Program-made: the position numbers and the translations under genes
From: Escherichia coli
GTDB taxonomy: Bacteria > Pseudomonadota > Gammaproteobacteria > Enterobacterales > Enterobacteriaceae
Assembly: GCF_003334405.1 (NCBI RefSeq)
Contig: NZ_QOWM01000005.1
Reading direction: 5' to 3' (one strand)
DNA: 64,000 bases
Part shown: piece by piece, positions 10,091-25,878 of the stretch
Layout of the letters: every line of letters begins with the position of its first letter
Numbering within the stretch: the first letter of the stretch is position 1
The notes under the pieces: model-generated
Databases searched by the model: none
The model's input: only the letters and a program-made list of their open reading frames with translations
Told to the model about the DNA's origin: nothing

Positions 10091-10624
10091 ATGCGCCTGC
10101 TCCCTCTCGTTGCCGCAGCGACAGCTGCATTTCTGGTCGTTGCCTGCAGTTCTCCTACGCCGCCGCGTGGCGTGACCGTAGTAAATAATTTCGACGCCAA
10201 ACGTTATCTCGGTACCTGGTATGAGATTGCCCGTTTTGATCACCGCTTTGAACGTGGACTGGAAAAAGTCACCGCAACATACAGCCTGCGTGATGACGGC
10301 GGCCTGAATGTCATTAATAAAGGCTATAACCCTGACAGAGGAATGTGGCAGCAGAGTGAAGGGAAAGCGTACTTTACCGGCGCACCAACTCGCGCTGCGC
10401 TGAAAGTGTCATTCTTTGGTCCTTTCTATGGCGGTTATAACGTTATTGCACTCGATCGGGAATACCGCCATGCGCTGGTTTGCGGCCCGGACCGCGACTA
10501 CCTGTGGATACTCTCCCGCACGCCAACCATTTCTGACGAAGTGAAACAGGAGATGCTGGCAGTCGCGACCCGGGAAGGGTTTGATGTCAGTAAATTTATT
10601 TGGGTACAGCAGCCTGGTAGTTAG
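10091..10624 (+). CDS. blc: Outer-membrane lipocalin Blc (177 aa)
   Basis: ORF track; lipobox VVAC; lipocalin motif GTWYEIAR. Confidence 0.93.
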
Positions 10625-10938
10625 TGAGTGCTGAGTTTCAGACCAATAATCCCCAATACGATTAACGCCAGACTCGCCAGGCGCATCGGGTTAGCGGACT
10701 CACCGAGCAGCACAATGCCGGTTATGGCCGCGCCGACTGCGCCAATACCCGTCCACACGGCATAAGCCGTCCCTACTGGTAACGATTTCATCGCCCAGGC
10801 AAGTAGCGCCATACTGACAATCATCGCCGTCACAGTAATAACACTCGGCGTCAAACGACTAAAGCCGTGGGTATATTTCAGGCCAACGGCCCATACCACT
10901 TCCAGCAGACCAGCAATAACTAAGATAATCCAGGACAT
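10621..10938 (-). CDS. gdx: SMR-family guanidinium exporter Gdx (SugE), 105 aa
   Basis: ORF 10621..11088; start at [10 protein letters not shown] (ATG 10938); four-helix SMR sequence. Confidence 0.93.
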
Positions 10939-10954
10939 ATCAGGCTCCGGAGAA

Positions 10955-11002
10955 TTGGGGCCGTCCCCGGTGAAAAGAGGCGTTTGCAGGTCGTCCTGCA
11001 AA
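10955..11002 (-). ncRNA. Guanidine-II (mini-ykkC) riboswitch in the gdx 5' leader: two hairpins with ACGR loops (gcagg-ACGA-cctgc and ccgggg-ACGG-cccc)
   Basis: Both hairpins read directly on the minus strand, ~19 nt upstream of the gdx ATG; gene context (SMR exporter) fits. Confidence 0.7.
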
Positions 11003-11113
11003 GCTGATGGTTGAACGGATATTTTGCCAGGTGGCAGGGGAATTTCAACTATTACCTTTGTGACTATCGCAGAAAAAACAAACGGCACGACACAGCTGTC
11101 GTACCGTTATTGC

Positions 11114-11260
11114 TTATTGCTGCGCTTTCGTTGCTGCGCCAGAAATCGCGTTACCGCCATCAGAAATGTCTTCACCAACGCCACGCGTGGTGTTGCAGGC
11201 AGTTAATACTGTTGAAAGCACCAGAACAGAAAAGATCGCTGCAATTGTCTTCTTCACCAT
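11114..11260 (-). CDS. ecnB: Entericidin B lipoprotein (48 aa; [48 protein letters not shown])
   Basis: Hand-translated; below ORF-track cutoff; lipobox LTAC; paralogue of ecnA. Confidence 0.85.
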
Positions 11261-11370
11261 AACGTCTTCCTTTTAGGTAATGTTATTTATGTTTGCCTAT
11301 AGCAAATTAATAATAGACAACATCGCCAAAAATGATGGGAATCTGATGATTTTTCGGAAGAGAAGAAAAA

Positions 11371-11496
11371 TTAGCTGGCAGCGCGAGAGATGGAGTTGCC
11401 GAGATGTTTGATGTCTTCGCCGAAACCGCGAGCGGTGTTACAGCCCGTGAGCAGCGTGCTGGCAAGCAAAACAAGAACGATAAGGCGTTTCATCAT
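11371..11496 (-). CDS. ecnA: Entericidin A lipoprotein (41 aa; [41 protein letters not shown])
   Basis: Hand-translated; below ORF-track cutoff; lipobox LTGC. Confidence 0.85.
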
Positions 11497-11547
11497 CTCT
11501 GACCTGAATAAGTGATGGTGCAGCCTGCAGGCCGCACCACAACCGCA

Positions 11548-12114
11548 TTACTTCACGCGAGAGACGTATTCACCAGAGCGGGTATCCACTTTGATGACTT
11601 CGCCGATTTGTACAAACAGCGGAACTTTAACCACAGCGCCAGTAGACAGGGTAGCCGGTTTGCCACCAGTACCTGCGGTATCACCTTTCAGGCCCGGATC
11701 GGTATCAACGATTTCCAGTTCAACGAAGTTCGGCGGAGTAACGGAGATCGGCTGACCATTCCACAGAGTTACGATACACTCTGCCTGATCCAGCAGCCAT
11801 TTAGCGTTGTCACCAATTGCTTTTGCATCAGCAGACAGCTGCTCGAAAGTTTCGTTGTTCATGAAGTGCCAGAACTCACCGTCGTTGTACAGGTAAGTCA
11901 GGTTCATATCGACAACATCAGCGCCTTCAGCGGAATCAGTAGATTTGAAGGTTTTTTCTACGCGAGTACCGGTCAGCAGACGACGCAGTTTAACGCGAGC
12001 AAATGCCTGGCCTTTACCCGGTTTTACGAATTCACTCGCTTCAACCGCGTAAGGTTCGCCGTCTAACATGATTTTAAGACCAGCACGAAAATCGTTGCTA
12101 TAGTACGTTGCCAT
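11548..12114 (-). CDS. efp: Translation elongation factor P (188 aa)
   Basis: ORF track; KPGKG loop carrying modifiable Lys34. Confidence 0.97.
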
Positions 12115-12155
12115 AAGGCCCTCTGAAATTTGTTAATTGGTAGCTAAGCCACAAA

Positions 12156-13184
12156 ATGGCGCATATTGTAACCCTAAATACCCCATCCAGAGAAGATTGG
12201 TTAACGCAACTTGCCGATGTTGTGACCGATCCTGATGAACTTCTGCGTCTTTTGAATATAGACGCGGAGGAAAAACTGTTAGCCGGACGCAGCGCCAAAA
12301 AGCTTTTTGCCCTGCGTGTGCCCCGCTCATTTATCGATCGCATGGAGAAAGGCAATCCGGACGATCCTCTTTTGCGTCAGGTACTTACCTCGCAAGATGA
12401 GTTTGTCATCGCGCCCGGATTCTCCACCGACCCACTGGAAGAACAGCACAGCGTAGTGCCTGGTTTGTTGCATAAATACCACAACCGGGCGCTTTTGCTG
12501 GTCAAAGGCGGCTGCGCGGTAAATTGCCGCTATTGCTTCCGTCGTCACTTCCCCTATGCCGAAAATCAGGGCAACAAGCGTAACTGGCAAACTGCACTTG
12601 AGTATGTTGCTGCGCATCCGGAACTGGACGAGATGATTTTCTCCGGCGGCGATCCGCTGATGGCGAAAGATCACGAGCTGGACTGGTTGCTCACACAACT
12701 GGAAGCCATCCCGCATATAAAACGTCTGCGGATTCACAGCCGTCTGCCGATTGTGATCCCGGCACGTATCACCGAGGCGCTGGTTGAATGCTTTGCCCGT
12801 TCTACGCTGCAAATCTTGCTGGTGAATCACATCAACCATGCCAATGAGGTAGATGAAACATTCCGTCAGGCGATGGCTAAGTTGCGCCGGGTAGGCGTTA
12901 CTTTGCTGAACCAGAGCGTTCTGTTACGTGATGTGAACGATAACGCACAAACGCTGGCAAACCTGAGTAATGCGTTGTTCGATGCCGGCGTAATGCCGTA
13001 TTACCTGCATGTGCTCGATAAAGTACAGGGCGCGGCGCATTTTATGGTGAGTGATGACGAAGCACGGCAGATTATGCGTGAGTTGCTGACACTGGTGTCG
13101 GGATATCTGGTGCCGAAACTGGCGCGAGAAATTGGCGGCGAACCCAGCAAAACGCCGCTGGATCTCCAGCTACGCCAGCAGTAA
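12156..13184 (+). CDS. epmB: EF-P beta-lysylation protein EpmB (YjeK), lysine 2,3-aminomutase-like radical SAM enzyme, 342 aa
   Basis: ORF track; CxxxCxxC motif (CAVNCRYCFRR). Confidence 0.93.
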   Translation: MAHIVTLNTPSREDWLTQLADVVTDPDELLRLLNIDAEEKLLAGRSAKKLFALRVPRSFIDRMEKGNPDDPLLRQVLTSQDEFVIAPGFSTDPLEEQHSVVPGLLHKYHNRALLLVKGGCAVNCRYCFRRHFPYAENQGNKRNWQTALEYVAAHPELDEMIFSGGDPLMAKDHELDWLLTQLEAIPHIKRLRIHSRLPIVIPARITEALVECFARSTLQILLVNHINHANEVDETFRQAMAKLRRVGVTLLNQSVLLRDVNDNAQTLANLSNALFDAGVMPYYLHVLDKVQGAAHFMVSDDEARQIMRELLTLVSGYLVPKLAREIGGEPSKTPLDLQLRQQ

Positions 13185-13216
13185 CTGATTAAACAGGGAA
13201 GTTAAACATTAAAATT

Positions 13217-13316
13217 GCCTGATTCGCTACGCTTATCAGGCCTACATCGTGCATTGAAATTGAATGGATTTGCAATGAACTGTAGGCCGGATAAGGCGTT
13301 TACGCTGCATCCGGCA
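13217..13316. repeat. BIME: two REP palindromes in opposite orientation (gcctgattcgctacgcttatcaggcctac ... gtaggccggataaggcgtttacgctgcatccggc)
   Basis: REP consensus palindromes read directly, downstream of epmB. Confidence 0.75.
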
Positions 13317-13578
13317 AGAGCAACAAACGCAAGTACAGCAACCTGTCATTAAACTGGGAAGTTTAATCTTTGCCCGTTGCATAACCTTTAATTATTCATA
13401 TGCATTGCTGTTGTTACTTTTTATATAGCTAACACCAATAATTAACCTTTCTTTTCTGTTTATATAGAGTGAGTACGGCTATTTATGTTATTTTAACAAC
13501 TATTACTACCAAGCCCATTTATCTGGCTTATAAATTAAAATTAATTATTTAATTGAGAAATGGTTAGGGAGAACCTAC

Positions 13579-14448
13579 ATGGCCATAAGCATCAAGGGTG
13601 TTAATACCGGTGTTATTCGCAAGAGTAATAATTTCATTGCACTGGCGCTGAAAATTAAAGAACCTCGCAATAAAGAATCGTTGTTCTTTATGTCTGTCAT
13701 GGAACTGCGCGACCTGCTGATTGCGCTGGAAAGTCGTCTGCATCAAAAGCATAAACTGGATGCTGCTGCACACCTTCAGTATGAGCAAGCTCGCGATAAA
13801 GTCATTAAGAAAATGGCAGAAAACATCCCAGAAATTCTGGTTGATGAGCTTAAAAATGCCGATATTAATCGTCGGGTTAACACGCTGGAACTTACCGATA
13901 ATCAAGGCGAAAATCTTACCTTCGTATTAACGCTACATGACGGTAGCAAATGTGAGTTAGTCGTCAATGAGTTGCAGATTGAAATGCTGGCGCGAGCAAT
14001 CATTCATGCAATTAATAATGCGGAAATGCGTGAACTGGCATTACGTATTACCTCACTGTTAGATTTCCTGCCGTTATACGACGTTGACTGCCAGGACAAT
14101 GGCAATCTGGAATATGACACCTATTCCCAACCGGAATGGAAACATAACTTGTTCGACCATTATCTGGCGGTGCTTTACCGCTTTAAAGATGAAAGTGGCA
14201 AAGAACAATTTAGCGGCGCAGTGGTGAAAACGCGTGAAGCAACGCCGGGTAAAGAAATAGAAGCGATCACTCGCCGAATGCTTGATTTCAGCCCACGACT
14301 GAAAAAACTCGCGGGTGTGCCATGTCAGGTCTATGTTCGCACCGTAGCGGCGAATAACGCCCAACCGCTAACCCAGGATCAATGCTTACGCGCGCTGCAT
14401 CACTTACGTGTTCAATCCACCAGCAAAACTGCACCACAGGCGAAATAA
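13579..14448 (+). CDS. yjeJ: Uncharacterised protein YjeJ (289 aa)
   Basis: ORF track; AT-rich gene with very AT-rich upstream region; no recognisable catalytic motif. Confidence 0.8.
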   Translation: MAISIKGVNTGVIRKSNNFIALALKIKEPRNKESLFFMSVMELRDLLIALESRLHQKHKLDAAAHLQYEQARDKVIKKMAENIPEILVDELKNADINRRVNTLELTDNQGENLTFVLTLHDGSKCELVVNELQIEMLARAIIHAINNAEMRELALRITSLLDFLPLYDVDCQDNGNLEYDTYSQPEWKHNLFDHYLAVLYRFKDESGKEQFSGAVVKTREATPGKEIEAITRRMLDFSPRLKKLAGVPCQVYVRTVAANNAQPLTQDQCLRALHHLRVQSTSKTAPQAK

Positions 14449-14517
14449 TCTCATCTTTGCTAATGCGAGGCTGGAGCCATCCAGCCTGAAATGACTGATA
14501 ACGTGATCGTTGGTCAT

Positions 14518-14617
<100 letters not shown>

Positions 14618-14650
14618 ATTATACGTTTGTCACCCAGCCTCTGGATCACA

Positions 14651-15004
14651 TCAGTTCGGGCACTTATAAACCTGACCGATAATCTGGCTATCCGTCGGGA
14701 CAAAACTGGACAACATTCCCTGCGACGGGCTACTGATGCCATAAATCACGTTACCGCCCATTGCAGCCGCCTGGTTGCGCAGATCGTTTGCTGCGCCGCG
14801 CATAGAACCGCCTTCTTCTCCGTGTTGCCCGGAAAGCCAGTTGCTTTGCTTACCTGTCGCAGTACCAATCAGCTGGCACTCTGCGCCTGGCTGCTCGTCC
14901 ACAATGCGTACACTCTGACCGGCAGCACTCAATTCGTTGCTGGAGCTACAACCCGCCATCAGTAGCGCGGCACCGACAATCCCTGCTAAGTATTTTACGT
15001 GCAT
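14651..15004 (-). CDS. yjeI: Predicted lipoprotein YjeI (117 aa, DUF4156-like)
   Basis: ORF 14651..15037; start chosen at MHVKYLAG (ATG 15004); lipobox LMAGC. Confidence 0.75.
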   Translation of the reverse strand: MHVKYLAGIVGAALLMAGCSSSNELSAAGQSVRIVDEQPGAECQLIGTATGKQSNWLSGQHGEEGGSMRGAANDLRNQAAAMGGNVIYGISSPSQGMLSSFVPTDSQIIGQVYKCPN

Positions 15005-15075
15005 GTTATTCCCCATAATCAATGAGCTGGACGCCACTCGCGTCGTCCGTGTCTGAATCTTATACTAGAAAGATG

Positions 15076-15115
15076 ACCAAAAGAAAAACCCCCAGACATT
15101 TCTGCCCGGGGGTTT
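15076..15115 (-). terminator. groESL operon terminator (8-bp stem aaaccccc/gggggttt, U-run on minus strand)
   Basis: Hairpin plus T-run immediately downstream of groL stop. Confidence 0.65.
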
Positions 15116-15141
15116 GTTTATTTCTGCGAGGTGCAGGGCAA

Positions 15142-16800
<1,659 letters not shown>

Positions 16801-16831
16801 TTAAATTCGTATGTTCAGTGTCGTGCGCGGA

Positions 16832-17176
<345 letters not shown>

Positions 17177-17203
17177 TTACGTGGTTTCCCGGCTGGTGAC
17201 CAG

Positions 17204-17233
17204 AGAAATGGGGATGAGGCTTCGCCCCTTCAA
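17204..17233 (-). promoter_or_regulatory. groESL sigma-32 heat-shock promoter (-35 CCCCCTTGAA; -10 CCCCATTTC)
   Basis: Minus strand reads ttcccccttgaaggggcgaagcctcatccccatttctctggtcac, the classical groE heat-shock promoter. Confidence 0.8.
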
Positions 17234-17400
17234 GGGGGAAAAAGAAAAAAAATTCTGATCAGCACAAAATCGGGTGAAAACCCTGATTCACCTCACATTT
17301 CATCGCAATTTCTTCATCGCCGTCATAAGCGAATCTGATTGTGCTACCATCGAAAATCTACGCAGTTGCCCAAAATTTGGGCGCAATCGGACATCAACCC

Positions 17401-18657
17401 ATGAGTGGACTCAAACAAGAACTGGGGCTGGCCCAGGGCATTGGCCTGCTATCGACGTCATTATTAGGCACTGGCGTGTTTGCCGTTCCTGCGTTAGCTG
17501 CGCTGGTAGCGGGCAATAACAGCCTGTGGGCGTGGCCCGTTTTGATTATCTTAGTGTTCCCGATTGCGATTGTGTTTGCGATTCTGGGTCGCCACTATCC
17601 CAGCGCAGGCGGCGTCGCGCACTTCGTCGGTATGGCGTTTGGTTCGCGGCTTGAGCGAGTCACCGGCTGGCTGTTTTTATCGGTCATTCCCGTGGGTTTG
17701 CCTGCCGCACTACAAATTGCCGCCGGGTTCGGCCAGGCGATGTTTGGCTGGCATAGCTGGCAACTGTTGTTGGCAGAACTCGGTACGCTGGCGCTGGTGT
17801 GGTATATCGGTACTCGCGGTGCCAGTTCCAGTGCTAATCTACAAACCGTTATTGCCGGACTTATCGTCGCGCTGATTGTCGCTATCTGGTGGGCGGGCGA
17901 TATCAAACCTGCGAATATCCCCTTTCCGGCACCTGGTAATATCGAACTTACCGGGTTATTTGCTGCGTTATCAGTGATGTTCTGGTGTTTTGTCGGTCTG
18001 GAGGCATTTGCCCATCTCGCCTCGGAATTTAAAAATCCAGAGCGTGATTTTCCTCGTGCTTTGATGATTGGTCTGCTGCTGGCAGGATTAGTCTACTGGG
18101 GCTGTACGGTAGTCGTCTTACACTTCGACGCCTATGGTGAAAAAATGGCGGCGGCAGCATCGCTTCCAAAAATTGTAGTGCAGTTGTTCGGTGTAGGAGC
18201 GTTATGGATTGCCTGCGTGATTGGCTATCTGGCCTGCTTTGCCAGTCTCAACATTTATATACAGAGCTTCGCCCGCCTGGTCTGGTCGCAGGCGCAACAT
18301 AATCCTGACCACTACCTGGCACGCCTCTCTTCTCGCCATATCCCGAATAATGCCCTCAATGCGGTGCTCGGCTGCTGTGTGGTGAGCACTTTGGTGATTC
18401 ATGCTTTAGAGATCAATCTGGACGCTCTTATTATTTATGCCAATGGCATCTTTATTATGATTTATCTGTTATGCATGCTGGCAGGCTGTAAATTATTGCA
18501 AGGACGTTATCGACTACTGGCGGTGGTTGGCGGGCTGTTATGCGTTCTGTTACTGGCAATGGTCGGCTGGAAAAGTCTCTATGCGCTGATCATGCTGGCG
18601 GGGTTATGGCTGTTGCTGCCAAAACGAAAAACGCCGGAAAATGGCATAACCACATAA
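17401..18657 (+). CDS. yjeH: APC-family amino acid (methionine/branched-chain) exporter YjeH (418 aa)
   Basis: ORF 17341..18657; start at MSGLKQELGL (ATG 17401); 12-TM-like hydrophobic profile. Confidence 0.9.
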   Translation: MSGLKQELGLAQGIGLLSTSLLGTGVFAVPALAALVAGNNSLWAWPVLIILVFPIAIVFAILGRHYPSAGGVAHFVGMAFGSRLERVTGWLFLSVIPVGLPAALQIAAGFGQAMFGWHSWQLLLAELGTLALVWYIGTRGASSSANLQTVIAGLIVALIVAIWWAGDIKPANIPFPAPGNIELTGLFAALSVMFWCFVGLEAFAHLASEFKNPERDFPRALMIGLLLAGLVYWGCTVVVLHFDAYGEKMAAAASLPKIVVQLFGVGALWIACVIGYLACFASLNIYIQSFARLVWSQAQHNPDHYLARLSSRHIPNNALNAVLGCCVVSTLVIHALEINLDALIIYANGIFIMIYLLCMLAGCKLLQGRYRLLAVVGGLLCVLLLAMVGWKSLYALIMLAGLWLLLPKRKTPENGITT

Positions 18658-18672
18658 TCCGGCGTTTCGACA

Positions 18673-19149
18673 TTAATCCTGGCGATCGTCTTTATGATCA
18701 AGGCGGTCGCGCTCATCATCCTTTCGCTGGTACTCACCATCAAAAGTATTACCGCCACCGGTCCCGGCGCTAAAACCGCCGCCAGGCATGCGAGAAAAGC
18801 GCAAATGCGGCATCAACTTCACTGTCAGATGCTTTTGCACCGGCGGCAATAAAAGTAGAAGACCGAGGAAGTCGGTAAAAAAGCCCGGTAATAAAAGCAG
18901 CAAACCAGCAATGATCAGCGAAACACTTTTAATCATCTCCGCCGCTGGGTTTTCACCCGCCGCCATTTTTTGCTGCATCAGCACGAAATTCTTAAAGCCC
19001 TGGTTACGTACCAGTGACATACCGATAACTGACGTGAATATAACCAGCACGAGGGTCAGCAATACCCCCAATACATGGGCAACCTGAATAAAGATTGAAA
19101 TCTCAATATAGACATAAAGGAAAATGGCAATAAAAGGTAACCAGCGCAA
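18673..19149 (-). CDS. fxsA: Inner membrane protein FxsA (F-plasmid phage-exclusion suppressor), 158 aa
   Basis: ORF track; acidic C-terminal tail; stop only 15 bp from yjeH stop (convergent). Confidence 0.9.
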   Translation of the reverse strand: MRWLPFIAIFLYVYIEISIFIQVAHVLGVLLTLVLVIFTSVIGMSLVRNQGFKNFVLMQQKMAAGENPAAEMIKSVSLIIAGLLLLLPGFFTDFLGLLLLLPPVQKHLTVKLMPHLRFSRMPGGGFSAGTGGGNTFDGEYQRKDDERDRLDHKDDRQD

Positions 19150-19485
19150 AGGTTTCTCCTGTAATAGCAGCCGGTTAACCCCGGCTACCTGAATGGGTTG
19201 CGAATCGCGTTTAGCTTATATTGTGGTCATTAGCAAAATTTCAAGATGTTTGCGCAACTATTTTTGGTAGTAATCCCAAAGCGGTGATCTATTTCACAAA
19301 TTAATAATTAAGGGGTAAAAACCGACACTTAAAGTGATCCAGATTACGGTAGAAATCCTCAAGCAGCATATGATCTCGGGTATTCGGTCGATGCAGGGGA
19401 TAATCGTCGGTCGAAAAACATTCGAAACCACATATATTCTGTGTGTTTAAAGCAAATCATTGGCAGCTTGAAAAAGAAGGTTCAC
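19150..19485 (+). promoter_or_regulatory. aspA-dcuA promoter/regulatory region (expected CRP/FNR control)
   Basis: 336-bp AT-rich intergenic region before aspA; individual sites not resolved by eye. Confidence 0.4.
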
Positions 19486-20922
19486 ATGTCAAACAACATT
19501 CGTATCGAAGAAGATCTGTTGGGTACCAGGGAAGTTCCAGCTGATGCCTACTATGGTGTTCACACTCTGAGAGCGATTGAAAACTTCTATATCAGCAACA
19601 ACAAAATCAGTGATATTCCTGAATTTGTTCGCGGTATGGTAATGGTTAAAAAAGCCGCAGCTATGGCAAACAAAGAGCTGCAAACCATTCCTAAAAGTGT
19701 AGCGAATGCCATCATTGCCGCATGTGATGAAGTCCTGAACAACGGAAAATGCATGGATCAGTTCCCGGTAGACGTCTACCAGGGCGGCGCAGGTACTTCC
19801 GTAAACATGAACACCAACGAAGTGCTGGCCAATATCGGTCTGGAACTGATGGGTCACCAAAAAGGTGAATATCAGTACCTGAACCCGAACGACCATGTTA
19901 ACAAATGTCAGTCCACTAACGACGCCTACCCGACCGGTTTCCGTATCGCAGTTTACTCTTCCCTGATTAAGCTGGTAGATGCGATTAACCAACTGCGTGA
20001 AGGCTTTGAACGTAAAGCTGTCGAATTCCAGGACATCCTGAAAATGGGTCGTACCCAGCTGCAGGACGCAGTACCGATGACCCTCGGTCAGGAATTCCGC
20101 GCTTTCAGCATCCTGCTGAAAGAAGAAGTGAAAAACATCCAACGTACCGCTGAACTGCTGCTGGAAGTTAACCTTGGTGCAACAGCAATCGGTACTGGTC
20201 TGAACACGCCGAAAGAGTACTCTCCGCTGGCAGTGAAAAAACTGGCTGAAGTTACTGGCTTCCCATGCGTACCGGCTGAAGACCTGATCGAAGCGACCTC
20301 TGACTGCGGCGCTTATGTTATGGTTCACGGCGCGCTGAAACGCCTGGCTGTGAAGATGTCCAAAATCTGTAACGACCTGCGCTTGCTCTCTTCAGGCCCA
20401 CGTGCCGGCCTGAACGAGATCAACCTGCCGGAACTGCAGGCGGGCTCTTCCATCATGCCAGCTAAAGTAAACCCGGTTGTTCCGGAAGTGGTTAACCAGG
20501 TATGCTTCAAAGTCATCGGTAACGACACCACTGTTACCATGGCAGCAGAAGCAGGTCAGCTGCAGTTGAACGTTATGGAGCCGGTCATTGGCCAGGCCAT
20601 GTTCGAATCCGTTCACATTCTGACCAACGCTTGCTACAACCTGCTGGAAAAATGCATTAACGGCATCACTGCTAACAAAGAAGTGTGCGAAGGTTACGTT
20701 TACAACTCTATCGGTATCGTTACTTACCTGAACCCGTTCATCGGTCACCACAACGGTGACATCGTGGGTAAAATCTGTGCCGAAACCGGTAAGAGTGTAC
20801 GTGAAGTCGTTCTGGAACGCGGTCTGTTGACTGAAGCGGAACTTGACGATATTTTCTCCGTACAGAATCTGATGCACCCGGCTTACAAAGCAAAACGCTA
20901 TACTGATGAAAGCGAACAGTAA
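19486..20922 (+). CDS. aspA: Aspartate ammonia-lyase AspA (478 aa)
   Basis: ORF 19441..20922; start at [13 protein letters not shown] (ATG 19486); fumarase/aspartase signature [10 protein letters not shown]. Confidence 0.97.
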
Positions 20923-24504: not shown

Positions 24505-25080
24505 GTGCAACGTGAAGATGTACTGGGAGAAGCCCTGAAATTATTAGAATTACAAGGGATTGCCAACACCACGCTGGAGATGGTTGCTGAACGTGTGGAT
24601 TATCCACTGGACGAGCTACGCCGCTTCTGGCCAGACAAAGAGGCAATCCTCTACGATGCGCTGCGTTATCTTAGCCAACAGATAGATGTCTGGCGTCGTC
24701 AGCTGATGCTGGACGAAACGCAAACCGCCGAACAAAAGCTGCTGGCACGTTATCAGGCGTTATCGGAGTGCGTTAAAAACAACCGCTATCCGGGCTGTCT
24801 ATTTATCGCTGCCTGTACGTTTTATCCCGATCCTGGCCACCCTATTCATCAACTGGCCGATCAGCAAAAAAGCGCGGCCTACGATTTCACCCACGAACTG
24901 TTAACCACACTGGAAGTTGACGATCCGGCGATGGTAGCAAAGCAGATGGAACTGGTGCTGGAAGGCTGTTTAAGCCGAATGCTGGTGAATCGTAGCCAGG
25001 CGGATGTCGACACTGCACATCGGCTGGCGGAAGATATCCTGCGCTTCGCCCGCTGCCGCCAGGGTGGTGCATTGACCTGA
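24505..25080 (+). CDS. yjdC: TetR-family HTH regulator YjdC (191 aa, GTG start)
   Basis: ORF 24481..25080; start chosen at GTG 24505 ([12 protein letters not shown]). Confidence 0.8.
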
Positions 25081-25186
25081 CAGAAACACAGAAAAGAAGC
25101 GATTTGCCGCAATCTTAAGCAGTTGAATCGCTTTTACTGAAATTAGGTTGACGAGATGTGCAGATTACGGTTTAATGCGCCCCGTT

Positions 25187-25262
25187 GCCCGGATAGCTCA
25201 GTCGGTAGAGCAGGGGATTGAAAATCCCCGTGTCCTTGGTTCGATTCCGAGTCCGGGCACCA
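25187..25262 (+). tRNA. pheU: tRNA-Phe (anticodon GAA), 76 nt with encoded CCA
   Basis: gcccggatagctcagtcggtagagcaggggattgaaaatccccgtgtccttggttcgattccgagtccgggcacca read directly. Confidence 0.97.
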
Positions 25263-25272
25263 AATTCATATA

Positions 25273-25299
25273 AACGGACCTCCACGGAGGTCCGTTTTT
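25273..25299 (+). terminator. tRNA-Phe terminator (aacggacctcc/ggaggtccgtt stem then TTTT)
   Basis: Hairpin plus T-run 10 bp after the tRNA 3' end. Confidence 0.75.
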
Positions 25300-25878
25300 C
25301 GTTTCAGGACGCCACGATTTAAGCGTTCTGCCTCCAAATCAATTCTACCGAACTCAACCAGATTCTCCCCACATCACCAGCAATTTGCGGGCATATCCCA
25401 ATTCGGGAAAATTTGTTCCTGAGCTATAGCACTAACTGACGTGAAATGTCGTGCGGCCCCGTGATGCTGTTGAACGTCAAATGACGTCATCAGGAGCGTA
25501 ACGCATCCATAAAGCACAACACCGGTCTGAACGGCGACTGATGAGATTTTCTGAATGAGAACAAAGAGAAATGTATCAGTTCGCTTGCTCATGCAAAGAC
25601 TAACAATCCATTAAAATAGTAAGTGCTCCGGACAATTTTCCATGGATTATTTTCTGAACATTTTTCTTTGGCAAAGATGATGAATTTTGATGGTAAGGAA
25701 TATTACTTCTGGTTCTCAGTAAAATCCTTTCGTAATACTATGTAATCAAGAAGTTTATGGCTGGTAAAAATAACGTCTTGCATTCACCAATAATATGTAA
25801 ATAAACCCATCTATAGATGGTAAAAATAGGTTGTGGCAATTATCATTGCATCATTCCCTTTTCGAATGAGTTTCTATT

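Follow-up and report, generated by a model that had tools for sequence, protein, structure and literature searches.

The interval between yjdC and cadC of Escherichia coli is a documented insertion site for pathogenicity islands at the tRNA-Phe gene pheU, and islands at pheV and pheU share one integrase (PMC7686366). The modern pheU/pheV integrases, represented here by WP_001218773.1 (locus L007) and WP_001219071.1 (ETEC strain M9682-C1), are intact proteins of 414–421 amino acids with three Pfam domains; their genes lie 160–200 nt 3′ of tRNA-Phe and they use the 3′ end of the tRNA gene as the recombination core. The L007 enzyme has Arm-DNA-bind_3, Phage_int_M and Phage_integrase domains and shares 54% identity with phage P4 Int across 97% of its length, and to the same family belong the integrases of CP4-type cryptic prophages, which like that of P4 are tRNA-targeting tyrosine recombinases. 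Phage P4 itself integrates at leuX, not at tRNA-Phe. Decayed members have also been described; islands at tRNA-Phe in Salmonella are accompanied by integrase remnants downstream, alongside or beyond intact islands (PMC3408504). The closest described object is the K-12 pseudogene yjdQ (b4654), located between pheU and cadC; a literature search for the name yjdQ returned no papers.

The DNA analyzed here, a stretch of 64 kb referred to as the window, contains the E. coli dsbD-yjdC(dicD)-pheU-cadCBA region on the strand opposite to the K-12 numbering, and is 100% identical to K-12 derivatives at this locus. Downstream of pheU it carries an integrase relic that is the same object as yjdQ. The relic is homologous to the modern pheU/pheV integrases, belongs to the P4/CP4 family and has the same position and orientation next to the same tRNA 3′-end core, but unlike the modern enzymes it comprises only ~70 codons, without catalytic residues or a partner attR, and unlike the P4/CP4-type integrases it belongs to no prophage or satellite. 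The Salmonella remnants are likewise decayed integrases at tRNA-Phe, but are found in another genus and are different remnants, the likeness being one of description. We interpret the site, with a probability of about 0.9, as an attB for pheU/pheV-specific P4-type integrases which holds no present-day island and which retains, immediately downstream, the dead integrase stub (yjdQ) of an older one. The central object is thus already known, as yjdQ in K-12 and as a pseudogene called by PGAP. The present analysis adds the survival of N-terminal codons and of the spacer, the sharing of the deletion junction by several Escherichia species, population figures, and the differing chromosomal addresses of the neighboring cad block.

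Layout of the pheU–cadC interval

The original prediction described a pheU gene followed directly by its terminator and ~580 bp of AT-rich, non-coding DNA before cadC. The tRNA and terminator were confirmed by ARAGORN, Rfam, mapping to K-12 and a terminator scan, and the tRNA is the only one that ARAGORN finds in the 64 kb. With cadC starting at 25879, the gap between tRNA and cadC measures 616 nt, or ~575 nt counted from the terminator, in agreement with the predicted length. The composition is AT-rich only in the distal part, as the GC content is 0.32 in 25623–25878 versus 0.45 in 25263–25622. The terminator segment is also kept 3′ of tRNA-Phe in Citrobacter, Klebsiella and Leclercia loci. 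A permissive Rfam search of 24900–26100 returned nothing besides the tRNA.

Table 1 Features of the pheU–cadC region and its surroundings (window coordinates unless a locus is named).
Feature	Position	Strand	Basis or remark
tRNA-Phe(GAA), pheU	25187–25262	+	ARAGORN; Rfam RF00005, 68.3 bits; maps to K-12 pheU b4134
attB crossover core (tRNA 3′ end)	25240–25262	+	Duplicated as attR in island-bearing genomes
pheU intrinsic terminator	25272–25305	+	11-bp stem (25272–25297), 4-nt loop, T run; terminator scan
tRNA-to-integrase spacer, relic of P4-type island	25263–25425	+	Alignment to L007 spacer
First 11 integrase codons, IALTDVKCRAA	25426–25458	+	Match MALTDVKVRNA and MALTDAKIRAA of intact integrases
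Internal deletion junction	25459–25460	+	~1.04 kb, integrase residues ~12–358 gone
C-terminal integrase remnant, residues ~359–420 and stop	25460–25622	+	Extent identical to yjdQ (b4654)
72-aa antisense ORF	25374–25592	−	Overlies integrase relic
AT-rich spacer	25623–25812		No strand; confined to Escherichia pheU–cadC context
cadC-cadB-cadA-dtpC-lysU block, 8.8 kb	25813–34613	+	Relocated between lineages; L088 9935–18757, L091 18–8413, L090 9942–18765
ghoT-ghoS toxin-antitoxin pair	34732–35229	−	Annotation; last genes before homology to the cad-less lineage resumes at 35452

Several features of the surroundings were recorded in passing. The distance between yjdC and pheU is ~110 nt in E. coli versus 1.6–2.4 kb in many species, among them E. 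whittamii (L008), Escherichia sp. E1V33 (L009) and many loci from Enterobacter, Klebsiella and Kosakonia, in which yjdC ends at 10573 and the tRNA lies at ~12215–12960; the extra DNA upstream of the tRNA is probably a gene. In two E. coli genomes from chicken, NZ_CP080121.1 (H1) and NZ_CP080133.1 (H71), an IS1 element lies within the pheU–cadC interval and the rest of the interval is matched at 100% in two pieces. A 187-kb plasmid, NZ_CP137739.1 (H130), carries a tRNA-Phe gene and flank matching window positions 25139–25268 at 91.5%. Finally, between yjdM and yjdN (61430–61809) the window contains a 100-nt unit, built from REP/BIME-type palindromic units, that is repeated 3.8 times in tandem (97% matches); similar units occur in the E. 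fergusonii locus L088, and they represent ordinary E. coli repeat DNA.

The integrase relic and the search for att repeats

The gap had been described as free of any integrase, and a translated search against P4-type integrases had been proposed as a check. We used two intact integrases as independent probes, both encoded directly 3′ of pheU in other strains. In a tblastn search of the whole window with the L007 integrase (421 aa), the only significant matches fell at the relic, with a combined E value of 3e-8. Fragments of an integrase, which the original prediction had itself named as the sign of an island remnant as opposed to a naive site, are therefore present and make the site a remnant by that standard, although no intact integrase exists in the gap. 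The M9682-C1 integrase matched in two abutting pieces, residues 1–11 at 25426–25458 and residues 359–391 at 25460–25543, and a 36/39-nt match to the relic was seen at the DNA level. The N-terminal piece of 11 codons is insignificant when taken alone (E = 0.18 with the M9682-C1 probe), and its credibility comes solely from its collinearity with a spacer that is itself 90% identical to that of an intact locus. The 163-nt spacer relic aligns with the 197-nt L007 spacer with 145 of 160 aligned positions identical (90.6%), the relic having lost 37 nt in small deletions. The suggestion in the original prediction that the site might hold degraded remnants was hence borne out: a P4-type integrase gene has left behind 11 codons from its start, ~60 from its end and the spacer in front of it.

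The C-terminal piece, which was realigned separately because a global MAFFT alignment of the window with the intact locus misplaced the 1-kb gap, is 85.7% identical in DNA to the L007 integrase gene through to the stop codon (CAG TAA versus TAG TAA). It maps exactly to K-12 MG1655 yjdQ (4362191–4362353). In a 100%-identical genome, PGAP annotates window positions 25460–25619 as a tyrosine recombinase pseudogene, "frameshifted; incomplete; missing N-terminus", and a RefSeq "tyrosine-type recombinase/integrase" annotation lies under the match in nearly all of the 5426 complete E. coli genomes (megablast with 25100–25900). The 11 N-terminal codons fall outside both the K-12 and the PGAP annotation, which cover the C-terminal piece alone. 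Since these codons and the spacer survive, the gene was damaged by a deletion in its interior and not by truncation at the 5′ end. By homology, the relic is a P4-type integrase gene that has lost its middle and that follows its tRNA in the usual place and orientation.

The damage is extensive. The start codon has changed from ATG to ATA, and the large deletion has removed the central domain entirely and the greater part of both the arm-binding and the catalytic domain, the latter loss including the HGFR box (HxxR, residues ~341–344). The C-terminal remnant additionally contains a 1-nt insertion, a 16-nt deletion that covers the catalytic tyrosine segment GVRAAY, a 14-nt deletion that covers LQWWA, and an in-frame stop. 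Judged from its sequence, the relic cannot encode an active integrase, because the start codon is mutated, residues ~12–358 and the tyrosine codons are deleted, and two frameshifts and a stop codon interrupt what is left. Of the properties of a functional P4-type integrase it thus displays the family homology, while domains PF13356 and PF22022, as well as an intact PF00589 with HxxR box and nucleophilic tyrosine in an open frame, are absent. Its placement next to the tRNA 3′ end and its orientation are right, but what occupies that place is a pseudogene stub only. NCBIfam gave no match to the stitched relic translation, the relic being too short, and a blastn comparison with a phage collection gave a single 43-nt match, to an integrase gene on a Salmonella houtenae contig. 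A comparable decay can be seen in progress at the same site in strain FDAARGOS_1059 (NZ_CP066032.1, L006 3311–5913), where the pheU-adjacent integrase is split by IS2.

The report of no direct repeat of the tRNA 3′ end in the window held up on closer inspection. The 23-mer at the tRNA 3′ end, searched with up to 3 mismatches, occurs once in the 64 kb, so that no second copy is present. Looser 24-mer matches (at least 16 of 24) are no commoner in the window than in shuffled sequence, and gapped local alignments for a decayed attR at the ghoS–yjdJ and integrase–cadC boundaries, and in locus L012, stayed at chance level. An attR direct repeat such as bounds an intact island is found nowhere in the window above chance level.

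These results bear on the idea that the site is a naive, never-occupied attB followed by ordinary AT-rich intergenic DNA. An intact integrase, an att repeat and a conserved ORF are indeed all lacking, as that idea would have it, but integrase-derived sequence is present, is collinear with the intact gene and is already annotated. As spacer and integrase relic together fill 25263–25622, we consider the idea refuted and give it very little credence. Returning to the attB with a dead stub, the original description of an empty site stands insofar as no present-day island is found there, and fails insofar as it implied a naive one. For "empty" tRNA sites more generally, a translated search is needed before they are called naive; here the reference annotation, in the form of yjdQ, already held the answer.

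The 72-aa antisense ORF over the relic had been called featureless, and this is what we find: it is open by chance, has no NCBIfam match and is annotated neither in K-12 nor by PGAP. We also weighed whether this ORF or the relic might have been recruited to a new role, as a small protein, as a regulatory RNA or in the control of cadC. Retention of the relic in nearly all E. coli, and an ORF left undisrupted in both E. coli and L009, would suit such recruitment. The ORF is broken in L008 and in the SCPM-O-B-8794 lineage (L010), however, and the region gathers lineage-specific indels, with no Rfam family besides the tRNA, no protein family match and no K-12 annotation of a function; recruitment therefore appears highly improbable.

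Age of the relic and use of the attachment site

A scan for YjdC in species-representative genomes yielded 80 loci. In three of them the relic is followed by cadC as in the window, namely in E. whittamii L008 (85% identity), Escherichia sp. E1V33 L009 (91%) and the SCPM-O-B-8794 lineage L010 (76%). All three share the deletion junction of the window, L010 retaining ~11 more nt, and their relics differ by lineage-specific small indels that are typical of pseudogene decay. In E. albertii (L013), the spacer and ~40 N-terminal integrase codons are followed by unrelated DNA. Within E. coli, 25240–25900 is covered in 5209 of the 5426 complete genomes (~96%). Because the deletion junction is common to several Escherichia species, the comparison shows the relic to be older than the split of E. 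coli from the L008–L010 lineages.

The occupancy of the site was assessed with a query (25000–25640) that spans yjdC, the tRNA and the relic. It replaced an earlier query, 25150–25350, that was dropped since the attL-side spacer of modern islands is 97–98% identical and empty and occupied sites both gave full-length matches. At a coverage of at least 80%, the site is contiguous, as in the window, in 3736 of 5426 complete E. coli genomes, and about 28–31% of the genomes are interrupted at pheU. In most non-contiguous genomes the best match starts at 25240–25242 (query position 241 corresponds to 25240), that is, with the attR copy, and then continues into the relic. In ETEC M9682-C1, for example, pheU is followed by an intact integrase, 21 kb of cargo, an attR CGATTCCGAGTCCGG-CACCA, and then by sequence that, beginning with the terminator, is 99.8% identical to the window. 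The arrangement in these assemblies shows that present-day islands insert between the tRNA and the fossil integrase, and the site in the window is evidently a usable attB for pheU/pheV-specific integrases, to judge by the other genomes.

A recent, strain-specific scar, left when a modern pathogenicity island excised imprecisely, would account for the 90–98% similarity between the spacer and the attL-side spacer of modern islands. Such a scar is not expected in ~96% of the species, nor beyond the attR of present-day islands, nor with a deletion junction that other Escherichia species share at 76–91% identity. Population and cross-species data thus contradict it, and we regard it as the least credible of the explanations discussed here.

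At an attB that keeps an older island's stub, an incoming island recombines within the last ~20–23 nt of the tRNA (25240–25262). The tRNA 3′ end and the terminator on the attL side are then those that the island has brought, and the original tRNA 3′ end becomes the attR at the far end of the island, with the stub still behind it. The ancient island would have entered by the same recombination at the tRNA 3′ end and would later have been immobilized through decay of its integrase, its right-hand att repeat having presumably decayed or been deleted. For island biology, this means that a new island comes to lie between the tRNA and what older islands have left there. To common pheU/pheV-type islands the relic also offers, outside the att core, a direct repeat of ~160 nt at 90% identity, which might allow integrase-independent loss of an island by homologous recombination.

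The 21-kb M9682-C1 island itself (NZ_CP024275.1, ETEC O6:H16; L003 1–21900) encodes, besides its intact integrase, the Kiwa proteins kwaA/kwaB, Dcm and Vsr, a TIR-domain protein adjoining a TPR protein, a MobQ relaxase, an H-NS-family protein and a TraD-like protein, and looks like a mobilizable defence island.

The cad block as possible island cargo

The stub may not be all that is left of the older island. A wider reading, which extends the explanation preferred above and does not exclude it, takes the whole of 25263–35451 (~10.2 kb) as a fossil, immobile P4-type island that consists of the dead integrase, cadCBA-dtpC-lysU and ghoST. We hold this reading tentatively and think it somewhat less probable than its absence, for the reasons that follow.

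In the window, cadC starts 256 nt after the integrase stop, and among the 80 YjdC loci an arrangement with cadC within 10 kb of pheU is found in Escherichia only. In several Enterobacter and Kosakonia species pheU stands directly before yjdF and proP, which in E. coli are 17 and 31 kb away. Within Escherichia, one lineage lacks both the relic and the cad block. This is L012 (CP089930.1, region 10759–20573), deposited as "E. coli" E69 and a separate species-level representative, whose match to the window stops at 25264 and resumes at 35452 (yjdJ), a restriction-modification pair lying in between. After its pheU there are a different terminator, a 219-aa ORF, a 386-aa ORF, yjdJ-yjdI and a 1322-aa ORF; by eye, the 386-aa ORF looks like a cytosine-5 DNA methyltransferase from its motifs, and the 1322-aa ORF like an autotransporter. 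An E. coli strain without ~10 kb (lysU, yjdL, cadABC) between pheU and yjdJ has been described before (PMC3408504). Such cad-less arrangements speak for the wider reading, but they could also be secondary deletions.

The cad block is found elsewhere in three lineages. E. fergusonii carries it as one 8.85-kb block, 90.3% identical, between dgcT and the tRNA gene serX, an interval that in K-12 holds IS3, ymdE and ycdU. In this variable region 3′ of serX, between lysU and serX (L088 18848–19297), lie two tandem repeat units of ~179 nt, each of which starts with the 3′-terminal ~19 nt of tRNA-Ser(GGA) (serX); these units look like att scars. In E. albertii the block is 93% identical and is located before yicG-ligB, and in Raoultella it is 76–79% identical, in three blocks, at yet another site. 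With different neighbors in each lineage and two addresses next to tRNA genes, the cad block behaves in a manner suggestive of a relocatable cassette. Against a tRNA-targeting island, no tRNA adjoins the block in Raoultella or E. albertii, and we found no locus in which the cad block is paired with an intact integrase.

The boundary between stub and block is similarly ambiguous. Among the YjdC-anchored loci compared, homologues of 25623–25812 are found only in L008–L010, and this segment does not precede cadC in E. fergusonii or Raoultella, whose homology to the window begins at 25813 and 25824, respectively. These 190 nt therefore lie outside the shared block, and the block could have reached an existing stub by another route. 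The window searches described above also revealed no attR that would close a 10.2-kb island. Composition is divided as well: GC3 is low in cadC (0.39), lysU (0.45), ghoTS (0.36–0.39) and yjdJ (0.40) versus 0.57–0.66 from dcuS on, as would suit foreign cargo, but is ordinary in cadA and dtpC.

Losses of cad genes are known from Shigella/EIEC. If the wider reading is true, tRNA-targeting islands brought lysine-dependent acid resistance, a core trait of E. coli, into the genus, and what Shigella/EIEC lost is former island cargo. An origin as island cargo would also account for the cad region being present or absent so cleanly as a unit.

Two further loci came up in the course of the CadC comparisons. 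A stand-alone CadC homologue of 524 aa (P0008; CP028768.1, L093 10001–11575), 84% identical and without cadBA, sits among IS66 elements, an autotransporter gene and an invasin-like gene, and is uninformative for the question of the cad block. In a frameshift-rich E. coli assembly (P0013), viewed over a stretch that does not reach pheU, cadC is preceded by island-like genes, including an antirestriction gene, RadC and a CbeA/CbtA toxin-antitoxin pair.
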